Source: Escherichia coli (GTDB taxonomy: Bacteria > Pseudomonadota > Gammaproteobacteria > Enterobacterales > Enterobacteriaceae). Taken from it: a stretch of DNA of 64,000 nucleotides. The notes beneath the pieces are model-generated. The model was not told the DNA's origin. It saw nothing but the letters and a program-made list of their open reading frames with translations, and searched no databases. A program made the translations under genes and the position numbers. Positions 47,421 to 49,667 of the stretch are shown one piece after another (positions within the stretch are counted from its first letter, which is position 1; every line of letters begins with the position of its first letter). Location of the stretch: the NCBI RefSeq assembly GCF_002854065.1, contig NZ_CP024147.1. The stretch is one strand, 5' to 3'.

Positions 47421-48869
47421 ATGAGCGCCATAGATTCCCAACTTCCCTCATCTTCTGGGCAAGACCGCCCAACTGATGAGGTTGACCGCATATTATCACC
47501 AGGAAAGCTGATCATACTCGGTCTGCAACACGTCCTTGTCATGTACGCAGGTGCAGTCGCTGTTCCTCTTATGATTGGTGACCGACTGGGCCTCTCAAAA
47601 GAAGCTATTGCGATGCTCATTAGCTCGGATCTCTTTTGCTGCGGGATCGTCACATTATTGCAATGTATCGGTATCGGCCGCTTTATGGGGATCCGCCTGC
47701 CGGTGATTATGTCGGTGACCTTTGCTGCTGTAACACCAATGATAGCCATTGGGATGAACCCGGATATCGGCCTGCTGGGGATATTTGGTGCCACTATCGC
47801 CGCGGGTTTTATCACCACATTATTAGCGCCACTTATCGGTCGCTTGATGCCTTTATTCCCGCCACTGGTTACCGGTGTGGTTATTACTTCTATCGGACTT
47901 AGCATCATTCAGGTGGGTATTGACTGGGCCGCCGGAGGTAAAGGGAATCCGCAATATGGTAATCCCGTTTATTTAGGTATCTCCTTTGCCGTCTTAATTT
48001 TTATCTTGCTCATTACTCGCTATGCGAAAGGATTTATGTCCAACGTCGCCGTATTACTGGGGATTGTATTTGGCTTTTTACTTTCGTGGATGATGAATGA
48101 AGTCAATTTATCCGGGCTACATGATGCCTCGTGGTTTGCGATTGTTACGCCGATGTCGTTTGGTATGCCGATTTTCGATCCCGTTTCCATTCTGACCATG
48201 ACTGCCGTGTTAATCATCGTGTTTATCGAGTCGATGGGGATGTTCCTGGCACTGGGTGAAATAGTCGGTCGTAAACTCTCTTCGCACGATATTATTCGCG
48301 GGCTGCGTGTCGATGGCGTAGGGACAATGATAGGCGGAACGTTTAACAGCTTCCCCCATACGTCATTTTCTCAAAACGTTGGCCTGGTTAGCGTGACGCG
48401 CGTTCATAGCCGCTGGGTGTGTATTTCTTCGGGAATTATATTAATCCTGTTTGGCATGGTGCCAAAAATGGCGGTGCTGGTAGCCTCCATTCCGCAATTT
48501 GTGCTGGGCGGCGCTGGTCTGGTGATGTTCGGCATGGTACTGGCGACAGGGATTCGAATTCTGTCGAGCTGTAACTACACCACCAACCGTTACAACCTCT
48601 ATATTGTGGCGATCAGTCTCGGCGTTGGCATGACTCCGACGCTCTCTCACGATTTCTTTTCTAAGTTACCGGCCGTACTGCAACCGCTGCTACATAGCGG
48701 CATTATGCTCGCAACCCTTAGCGCCGTTGTGCTGAATGTCTTCTTTAATGGCTATCAGCATCATGCTGACCTGGTGAAGGAATCCGTCTCTGATAAAGAT
48801 TTAAAAGTCAGGACAGTACGTATGTGGCTTCTGATGCGCAAGCTGAAGAAAAATGAGCATGGAGAATAA
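47421..48869 (+). CDS. uacT: Uric acid:H+ symporter (NCS2/NAT family)
   Basis: 482-aa ORF from MSAIDSQLPSSSGQDRPTDE with AAAGGAG Shine-Dalgarno; the track ORF starts 43 codons upstream at a TTG. Confidence 0.92.
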   Translation: MSAIDSQLPSSSGQDRPTDEVDRILSPGKLIILGLQHVLVMYAGAVAVPLMIGDRLGLSKEAIAMLISSDLFCCGIVTLLQCIGIGRFMGIRLPVIMSVTFAAVTPMIAIGMNPDIGLLGIFGATIAAGFITTLLAPLIGRLMPLFPPLVTGVVITSIGLSIIQVGIDWAAGGKGNPQYGNPVYLGISFAVLIFILLITRYAKGFMSNVAVLLGIVFGFLLSWMMNEVNLSGLHDASWFAIVTPMSFGMPIFDPVSILTMTAVLIIVFIESMGMFLALGEIVGRKLSSHDIIRGLRVDGVGTMIGGTFNSFPHTSFSQNVGLVSVTRVHSRWVCISSGIILILFGMVPKMAVLVASIPQFVLGGAGLVMFGMVLATGIRILSSCNYTTNRYNLYIVAISLGVGMTPTLSHDFFSKLPAVLQPLLHSGIMLATLSAVVLNVFFNGYQHHADLVKESVSDKDLKVRTVRMWLLMRKLKKNEHGE

Positions 48870-48870
48870 T

Positions 48871-48996
48871 ATGAGTTTTTTAATGCGCGCTATATTCAGT
48901 CTGCTGTTGCTTTTTACTCTCTCTATTCCTGTCATTTCTGACTGTGTTGCAATGGCCATTGAAAGTCGCTTCAAATATATGATGCTACTTTTTTAA
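48871..48996 (+). CDS. yqfG: Small hydrophobic protein (41 aa), translationally coupled to uacT
   Basis: ATG 1 nt after the uacT stop, with GGAG 7 nt upstream; MSFLMRAIFSLLLLFTLSIPVISDCVAMAIESRFKYMMLLF; assignment to yqfG is tentative, from memory of a 41-aa K-12 small protein. Confidence 0.45.
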   Translation: MSFLMRAIFSLLLLFTLSIPVISDCVAMAIESRFKYMMLLF

Positions 48997-49118
48997 ATGG
49001 TTTTTACCTGTCGACATCCGCTCAAAACGGGCGGTTGTCGATAAACGCTCACTTGGTTAATCATTTCACTCTTCAATTATCTATAATGATGAGTGATCAG
49101 AATTACATGTGAGAAATT

Positions 49119-49667
49119 ATGCAAACGGAACACGTCATTTTATTGAATGCACAGGGAGTTCCCACGGGTACGCTGGAAAAGTATGCCGCACACACGGCAG
49201 ACACCCGCTTACATCTCGCGTTCTCCAGTTGGCTGTTTAATGCCAAAGGACAATTATTAGTTACCCGTCGCGCTCTGAGCAAAAAAGCATGGCCTGGCGT
49301 GTGGACTAACTCGGTTTGTGGGCACCCACAACTGGGAGAAAGCAACGAAGACGCGGTGATCCGCCGTTGCCGTTATGAGCTTGGCGTGGAAATTACGCCT
49401 CCTGAATCTATCTATCCTGACTTTCGCTATCGCGCCACCGATCCGAATGGCATTGTGGAAAATGAAGTGTGTCCGGTATTTGCCGCACGCACCACCAGTG
49501 CGTTACAGATCAACGATGATGAAGTGATGGATTATCAATGGTGTGATTTAGCTGATGTATTACGCGGTATTGATGCCACGCCATGGGCGTTCAGTCCGTG
49601 GATGGTGATGCAGGCGACAAATCGCGAAGCCAGAATACGATTATCTGCATTTACCCAGCTTAAATAA
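49119..49667 (+). CDS. idi: Isopentenyl-diphosphate delta-isomerase (Nudix fold)
   Basis: 182-aa ORF starting [25 protein letters not shown]. Confidence 0.95.

Follow-up and report, generated by a model that had tools for sequence, protein, structure and literature searches.

Escherichia coli yqfG, a small-protein gene kept directly behind UacT-type urate permease genes, may encode a membrane partner of the permease

The stretch of Escherichia coli DNA analysed here (64,000 nucleotides in all, hereafter the window) carries uacT (ygfU, b2888), the gene for a urate:H+ symporter, at 47421–48869 on the plus strand, as assigned from RefSeq annotation in the O157:H7 and MG1655 records that match it and from the list of open reading frames. 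Its product differs from K-12 UacT at one residue (R383S), and the gene adjoins those of the anaerobic urate pathway (PMC12507026). The uacT stop codon (TAA, 48867–48869) is followed by a single base (t, 48870) and then by the ATG of yqfG, a coding sequence of 41 codons (48871–48996, plus strand, ending in TAA at 48994–48996) that is recognized from its translation, RefSeq annotation and a dN/dS below 1, and that encodes a small inner-membrane protein of 41 aa, MSFLMRAIFSLLLLFTLSIPVISDCVAMAIESRFKYMMLLF. The junction reads ...gag cat GGA Gaa TAA t ATG agt ttt tta..., in which a GGAG Shine–Dalgarno-like motif (48861–48864, plus strand) lies within the last uacT codons, 6 nt before the ATG; this is the geometry of a coupled pair (TAA-t-ATG, with the Shine–Dalgarno sequence inside the upstream gene). 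An earlier note on this DNA had described an ATG lying 1 nt past the uacT stop, a correctly spaced GGAG and a hydrophobic product, and was accurate in every detail.

The list of open reading frames opens the yqfG frame earlier, at ATG 48853 (47 aa), and holds a further in-frame ATG at 48859 (45 aa). Since neither of these longer starts has a Shine–Dalgarno sequence at a usable distance, neither is conserved in position (the in-frame upstream ATG of Citrobacter lies at −9, not at −12 or −18), and the Kluyvera orthologue begins at the equivalent of residue 3, i.e. with a shorter N-terminus, the 41-aa start is supported. The region around this start folds with −12 kcal/mol (z = −1.6), which is not unusually stable, so that occlusion of the start is not evident. 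An antisense frame (48801–48974, minus strand, 57 aa) was considered as the true gene and set aside; it is interrupted by stops in the relative L090 and in both Kluyvera sequences, and judged by this comparison it is a shadow frame.

It is virtually certain that the frame at 48871–48996 is the known E. coli gene yqfG and that it is a genuine protein-coding gene. The MG1655 counterpart (b4684, 3032817–3032942) is annotated as ‘uncharacterized protein YqfG’ and stands in the order uacT (b2888), yqfG, a convergent gene for 23 aa, yqfH (b4753), and idi. The window protein shares with K-12 YqfG (b4684, YQFG_ECOLI) this same locus (uacT – yqfG – yqfH – idi) and the same length, is identical to it at 40 of 41 residues, and retains the residues of the published mutagenesis (I8, L11–L13 and F15 are all present). 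The two alleles differ solely by two nucleotides, one giving N2S and the other synonymous, both typical of the O157:H7 lineage, and nothing functional distinguishes them. They fall into one 90% cluster, whose K-12 member bears the UniProt name YQFG_ECOLI, and each of the two proteins occurs on at least 1000 contigs in a public protein collection. The suggestion of the earlier note that this may be a known K-12 small protein is therefore correct; yqfG has been a known, named gene for years, and the frame adds nothing to the annotation of E. coli.

Within the species the gene is nearly ubiquitous: a 381-nt query around it (window 48750–49130), which is identical to an O157:H7 genome (TR01 record), finds a match in 5384 of 5426 complete E. 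coli genomes, and the yqfG frame by itself is found at ≥95% identity and ≥80% coverage in 5359 of the 5426. The feature under the match was yqfG in all 29 full-length matches of the 381-nt query that were sampled and in all 39 sampled matches of the frame. The hosts that have been given ygfU on a plasmid (PMC9067508) also keep chromosomal yqfG.

Downstream of yqfG the convergent gene yqfH (48993–49064, minus strand, RefSeq), a small open reading frame of 23 aa listed by VanOrsdel et al. 2018 (PMC6001520), overlaps the yqfG stop by 4 nt and spans a conserved stem–loop. It is poorly conserved, with a 61% identical counterpart in E. albertii only and none in Citrobacter, and as far as is known it is a neighbour and not a part of yqfG function. 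The stem–loop itself (49009–49043, plus strand) begins 13 nt after the yqfG stop, has a minimum free energy of −24.1 kcal/mol (z = −4.26), and keeps 6 of 10 consensus pairs through two-sided changes across Escherichia and Citrobacter. It probably marks the 3′ end of the uacT–yqfG transcript or stabilizes that transcript. A canonical intrinsic terminator was considered at this position and rejected, as the stem–loop is not followed by a U-tract and a scan with a U-tract consensus calls none there, and in Rfam the segment 48700–49200 matched only a model for an Enterococcus sRNA, whose gathering score of 100 exceeds the 20.9 bits reached, a chance match. The 3′ arm of the stem–loop contains TTGTCG (49035–49040), the −35 hexamer of the constitutive idi promoter (TTGTCG-18-AATCAT) listed by Shimada et al. 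2014 (PMC3946193). The idi coding sequence follows at 49119–49667 on the plus strand, a position next to yqfG that it holds in Escherichia and Citrobacter only.

The length of the frame carries no weight, given that a 41-codon open frame has a chance of about 0.14 in random sequence by simple arithmetic; it is conservation, not length, that makes yqfG more than a chance frame. Comparison of the window with orthologous DNA of E. albertii, three Citrobacter lineages and two metagenomic relatives gave dN/dS values (Nei–Gojobori) of 0.10–0.46 between species; two near-identical Citrobacter pairs, with 4–10 differences, gave 0.47 and 1.01 and are uninformative. The 10 nucleotide differences between E. 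coli and E. albertii are distributed 1/1/8 over the three codon positions, those between E. coli and Citrobacter sp. R56 15/6/17, so that substitutions are concentrated at third positions and second positions change least. Seven sequences of 41 codons show no indels, and among the six frames only frame +0 is open in all nine orthologues (9/9). Judged from these substitution patterns, the yqfG frame is under purifying selection. The earlier note had proposed conservation of the frame downstream of uacT orthologues as a check, and frame-disrupting differences in close relatives as the outcome that would speak against a gene. The check came out in favour of the gene, and in E. coli frame-disrupting alleles are rare (1–7 contigs each, or 1–33 when IS-junction alleles are counted as well), set against three intact alleles on at least 1000 contigs each.

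These data leave practically no room for a chance open frame in the uacT–idi spacer with no product. A frame of 41 codons is unremarkable by itself, and a comparison of YqfG with the NCBIfam and Pfam-A models returned 0 families at E ≤ 1, as such a frame would lead one to expect; this explanation is already refuted by the conservation of the frame and of its motif across genera, and is at odds with the curated annotation and with the published detection and handling of YqfG (PMC4597795, PMC10470546).

The yqfG family is wider than Escherichia. Profiles built from six and then from fifteen sequences, searched against libraries of 5.8 billion proteins and 1.84 billion representatives, recover relatives of 38–45 aa down to about 30% identity, and their sources are Escherichia, Citrobacter (amalonaticus, enshiensis, sp. 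R56 and sp. Marseille-Q6884), Kluyvera, Enterobacter and Klebsiella michiganensis/oxytoca/pasteurii, the last of these with members on more than 1000 contigs; public records label almost all of them hypothetical. The N-terminal half of the family follows the pattern M-x(1-5)-R, about 13 hydrophobic residues and [SA]-[ILMV]-P-[AVSI]-[IV]. The C-terminal half continues with about 8 residues, [ILF]-x-[SG]-R-F-x-[FYW] and 3–5 mostly hydrophobic or aromatic residues to the end. Arg6, Leu14, Pro20, Ser32 and Arg33 are invariant among 15 aligned sequences and Phe34 is nearly so, the [SG]-R-F motif is present also in 21 diverse members, and the strongest conservation lies in the C-terminal tail, not in the hydrophobic core. 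A family HMM run over the 64-kb window and 101 loci found no second copy or paralogue, and the best match of a PDB sequence search with YqfG, photosystem II D1 at E = 0.18, is a chance match.

Conservation of this kind also bears on whether the act of translation might matter and not the peptide. On this view, ribosomes that carry on beyond uacT could shield the 3′ end of the mRNA, block Rho termination or set the end of the transcript at the stem–loop. The stem–loop close behind the yqfG stop is conserved, and so are the Shine–Dalgarno sequence and the stop–start geometry, which would suit such a role; nevertheless it appears highly improbable, considering the constraint on the amino acids measured above, the invariance of the Arg, the Pro and the Ser-Arg-Phe across proteins whose DNA is about 30–37% diverged or unalignable, and the length of 38–42 aa in 20 of the 21 sequences from which the profile was built.

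The surroundings of the family were followed in 14 distinct members, namely those whose flanking DNA was examined, and in all 14 the gene lies directly 3′ of a gene of the Xan_ur_permease family on the same strand. These permease genes have 481–490 codons (on contigs L088 and L098 the 3′ portion alone is visible, and on L093 the upstream sequence is permease-like and untranslated), and their products range from 100% down to 41–43% identity to E. coli UacT. The gap between stop and start runs from −1 (a TAATG overlap) to +4 nt in 12 of the 14 visible junctions, those with low-identity permeases among them. Two lineages, Kluyvera L005 and contig L099, have wider gaps of 66 and 81 nt and a Shine–Dalgarno sequence belonging to the small gene itself, so that tight uacT–yqfG coupling is not universal. 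A Shine–Dalgarno-like motif precedes every orthologous start (GGTG, AGGA, GAGGA, GGGAG, GGGGGGG and AGGAGGGG), and in the 12 close junctions it lies in the final codons of the permease gene. The downstream neighbour varies: it is idi in Escherichia and Citrobacter, an FdhF-like molybdopterin enzyme gene in the Klebsiella/Enterobacter-type contigs, AraC-type regulators on L088, and xdhC on the opposite strand on L096. A ygfT-like gene lies divergently upstream in most contexts. The permease gene is the only invariant neighbour, the ygfT-like gene, idi and the fdhF-like gene each being missing from some contexts.

The stop–start overlap is kept down to about 42% permease identity, as would be expected if the products of yqfG and of the permease gene are needed together. 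The relation is not reciprocal: no family member was found behind the uacT orthologues of Citrobacter freundii, Serratia oryzae and Pluralibacter gergoviae, which are 82–83% identical to E. coli UacT, nor behind the more distant orthologues retrieved, including those of Hafnia, Edwardsiella, Aeromonas and Burkholderiales. Because close orthologues of uacT occur without the small gene, YqfG cannot be an obligatory subunit of UacT. The earlier note had called yqfG translationally coupled to uacT and possibly associated with the transporter. For the former, the geometry is as described and is conserved across genera, and coupling is what it would predict; the latter gains support from the strict, conserved synteny with UacT-like permeases, from which an association may be read. 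In the literature searched we found no paper connecting YqfG with UacT, and the synteny between the yqfG family and the permease, read from gene order, is the one result here that goes beyond the literature surveyed.

As a protein, YqfG is strongly hydrophobic (GRAVY 1.48), with a 9-residue Kyte–Doolittle maximum of 2.9 over residues 7–15. Hydropathy and the family alignments place a membrane-spanning or signal-peptide-like segment at codons 3–23 (FLMRAIFSLLLLFTLSIPVIS; 48877–48939, plus strand), which contains R6 and P20, and this is followed at codons 24–41 (DCVAMAIESRFKYMMLLF; 48940–48993, plus strand) by the conserved C-terminal tail, with its [SG]-R-F signature and aromatic-rich end, which is predicted to be periplasmic. 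AF2 supplied with the family alignment gave one continuous helix over residues 3–40 (mean pLDDT 82.9, falling to about 52 at the C-terminus). In 20 of 21 members a conserved Arg falls among residues 1–8, and the net charge of the tail is −1 to +1, a weak agreement with the positive-inside rule, and TMHMM predicts a type II protein, N-in/C-out (Akiyama et al., eLife 2015, PMC4597795). In the same study fractionation and alkali extraction showed HA-MBP-YqfG to be integrally membrane-associated (PMC4597795, Figure 2-figure supplement 1), and the proposal of a small membrane protein in the earlier note is thus backed by published membrane integration of the tagged form. Considering these data together, we infer that YqfG inserts as a single-pass N-in/C-out helix. 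The possibility of a lipoprotein modified at Cys25 was also considered and rejected: no lipobox L-[AS]-[GA]-C is present (E. coli reads V-I-S-D-C), and the Cys is replaced by Gly, Ser, Ala, Gln, Tyr or Val in Citrobacter, Kluyvera, the Klebsiella group and other members.

Chromosomally SPA-tagged YqfG was reportedly detected by Hemm et al. in 2008. The protein has since become a standard model substrate for the S2P intramembrane-cleaving protease RseP, for the test of which it was picked owing to its resemblance to a signal peptide (PMC4597795). HA-MBP-YqfG was cut inside the hydrophobic segment by wild-type RseP and not by the active-site mutant E23Q, and proline substitutions from Ile-8 to Phe-15 modulated cleavage, a region that the transmembrane assignment covers (PMC4597795). 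YqfG is listed as a class I RseP substrate, positive in four assays (Yokoyama et al., mBio 2023, PMC10470546 Table 1), and with HA-MBP and 3xFLAG tags it was cut by plasmid-borne, chromosomal and, in vitro, purified RseP (PMC10470546). The membrane and RseP data rest on N-terminally tagged, overexpressed YqfG, and the authors warn that tags can alter topology (PMC10470546). Cleavage of YqfG by RseP fits a type II topology.

The resemblance that led to these experiments raises the question of whether the first ~23 residues serve as a Sec signal peptide that is cleaved off, in which case the product would be a secreted or periplasmic peptide of 14–18 residues (DCVAMAIESRFKYMMLLF or shorter) and RseP would clear the leftover. 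YqfG shares with Sec signal peptides, and with type II single-span RseP substrates, a positive N-terminus, a short hydrophobic core, a helix-breaking Pro and a tiny periplasmic part. Its layout is n-h-c-like, Arg6 being followed by a hydrophobic core of 13 residues, short for a transmembrane helix; small residues come after the invariant Pro20 (E. coli V-I-S, Kluyvera V-Q-A), the tail is better conserved than the core, and RseP is stated to cleave remnant signal peptides (PMC4597795). Unlike a signal peptide, YqfG is encoded by a gene of its own and does not lead into a larger protein, and it carries a conserved tail of 17–18 residues with S-R-F, whereas a signal-peptidase site is not uniformly conserved. 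A permissive −3/−1 rule, which is a weak test and not a dedicated predictor, is satisfied somewhere in every sequence, and no column satisfies it in all of them; behind the Pro, the most favourable column reaches 16 of 21 members, and many members read P-A-V-Q-Q-A, with Gln at −3. Moreover, HA-MBP-YqfG accumulates at the expected full size when RseP is missing (PMC4597795). On balance we regard processing to a free peptide as improbable. A second group with which YqfG could be compared is that of the Hok-family type I toxins, which are likewise small, hydrophobic inner-membrane proteins and stand in the same table of RseP substrates (PMC10470546). In contrast to them, YqfG has no reported toxicity, no upstream mok-like frame, no dedicated antisense RNA and no sequence similarity, and yqfG is the distal cistron of a metabolic transporter operon, conserved with that operon.

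We suggest that YqfG is made by translational coupling to uacT, spans the inner membrane once as a partner of the urate permease, and is turned over by RseP, a reading to which we assign a probability of about 0.5; the functional partnership of YqfG with UacT is in this scheme inferred from synteny alone. In the mechanism that we propose, yqfG would be co-transcribed with uacT, and ribosomes ending at the uacT stop would re-initiate at yqfG, so that YqfG would be made in step with the permease. In the single-pass helix Arg6 would face the cytoplasm and Pro20 would come close to the outer leaflet, from where the conserved tail (...G-I-x-S-R-F-x-aromatic...F) might contact a UacT-type permease at the periplasmic face or at an interface. 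YqfG could then be a small, non-essential subunit with an accessory or regulatory role that affects the stability, assembly or activity of the permease, and RseP would clear those copies of YqfG that are not engaged with it.

One published observation counts against this partner model, in that plasmid-borne ygfU alone raises urate uptake, in hosts with their own chromosomal yqfG (PMC9067508), i.e. overexpressed UacT works without added YqfG. The same observation is what a real small membrane protein with a target other than UacT would produce: YqfG may ride on the uacT mRNA because it serves the urate-utilization module in another way (through YgfT/UacF, an FdhF-type enzyme or a sensor), or may have a general RseP-linked envelope role. 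That yqfG lies in a neighbourhood of purine and urate catabolism, with the ygfT-like gene divergently upstream in most contexts and the FdhF-like gene following it in the Klebsiella/Enterobacter-type contigs, would suit the former, and its efficiency as an RseP substrate (PMC4597795, PMC10470546) the latter. Each of these neighbours is missing somewhere, whereas the permease gene never is, and it is with the permease gene that the stop–start overlap has been preserved down to about 42% permease identity; we therefore consider a target other than UacT doubtful, if worth keeping in view.

A role as partner of the permease would not be without parallel. Small single-pass proteins modulate transporters and other membrane complexes in several cases, such as KdpF with KdpABC, AcrZ with AcrB, MgtS with MgtA and CydX with CydAB. 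To our knowledge, no small-protein subunit has been described for transporters of the NCS2/NAT family. The general class of small single-pass modulators is summarized in PMC10470546. Features that YqfG has in common with KdpF, AcrZ, MgtS and CydX are a length below 50 aa, one hydrophobic helix, a gene in or beside the operon of the partner, and dispensability in some lineages; for YqfG the co-location with one partner gene family is strict. It differs from them in that it has no sequence similarity to them and that its putative partner is a secondary transporter of the NCS2/NAT family. Extending the partner model from E. coli to the family, we put forward more tentatively that YqfG and its relatives may be dedicated small-protein partners of UacT-type urate permeases, with the S-R-F/aromatic tail contacting the permease and RseP removing unassembled copies. 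In a remote variant, the aromatic C-terminus (…LLF, …FYF or …YYF) would mimic the C-termini of outer-membrane proteins and be read by a periplasmic PDZ protease.

Finally, considering what the partner model would mean if it is true, YqfG would be the first small subunit or regulator described for a transporter of the NCS2/NAT family, and the removal of unassembled YqfG by RseP would tie urate uptake to envelope proteolysis. The cleavage of YqfG by RseP would in this way gain the physiological context that the authors who described it call missing (PMC4597795). UacT/YgfU is being built into probiotic strains for the clearance of uric acid (PMC9067508), and if YqfG stabilizes or tunes UacT, co-expression of the two could matter for such urate-clearing probiotics. 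Of modest value in itself, the conserved linkage gives the orphan small protein YqfG a specific candidate partner, the urate permease, that is cheap to test.

The yqfG stop codon is closely followed by a strong stem-loop (49009-49043, + strand), for which folding gave -24.1 kcal/mol (z = -4.26) and which is preserved by compensatory base changes across Escherichia and Citrobacter. The element carries no U-tract, and its 3' arm overlaps the -35 hexamer (TTGTCG, 49035-49040) of the idi promoter, published as constitutive with AATCAT (49059-49064) as its -10 hexamer (PMC3946193). The conserved hairpin also falls within the coding span of yqfH (b4753; 23 aa, 48993-49064, - strand), which is convergent with yqfG and shares a 4 nt overlap with its stop codon. 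A counterpart is recognisable only in E. albertii (61%). yqfH could be an sORF of recent origin or a side effect of the sequence that forms the hairpin. A second minus-strand frame, an antisense ORF of 57 aa (48801-48974) that wholly overlaps yqfG, runs uninterrupted through Escherichia and most of the Citrobacter sequences and is broken in L090 (one of the compared orthologous sequences) and Kluyvera, as shadow frames that face a hydrophobic coding sequence typically are.

Within E. coli, several rare yqfG protein alleles (P0030, P0046, P0056 and P0048, with P0046 found in 33 contigs) begin with a foreign N-terminal stretch, MNKLESLP... or MSKLASSP..., which is fused at differing points within the region of yqfG equivalent to window 48871-48930. 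These fusions look like recurrent insertion-sequence junctions, and as such imply both that loss of yqfG is possible and that insertions target the uacT-idi spacer. Distinct from the fusions are the frameshift alleles P0062, P0064, P0065, P0086 and P0087, each present in 1-7 contigs. In the adjacent permease gene, residue 383 of UacT (codon at window 48567) is Ser in the window versus Arg in K-12 MG1655 and O157:H7 TR01, a natural-looking single substitution.

In Kluyvera, uacT and the yqfG homologue are separated by 66 nt (L005, 4450-4515; L087, 3935-4000). Since an inverted repeat (gggcgctggga...tcccagcgcc) lies in this spacer and the homologue has its own SD (AGGA/GGAG), an intercistronic hairpin has taken the place of tight stop-start coupling in this lineage. 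Finally, in five Klebsiella oxytoca-group/Enterobacter-like contigs (L092, L094, L098, L100 and L101), a uacT-like permease gene is followed by a yqfG-like gene and then by one for an FdhF-like molybdopterin oxidoreductase, with a divergent ygfT-like Fe-S flavoprotein gene upstream in L092, L100 and L101. This arrangement is in keeping with what has been described for E. coli YgfT/UacF, namely formate-dependent urate utilisation.
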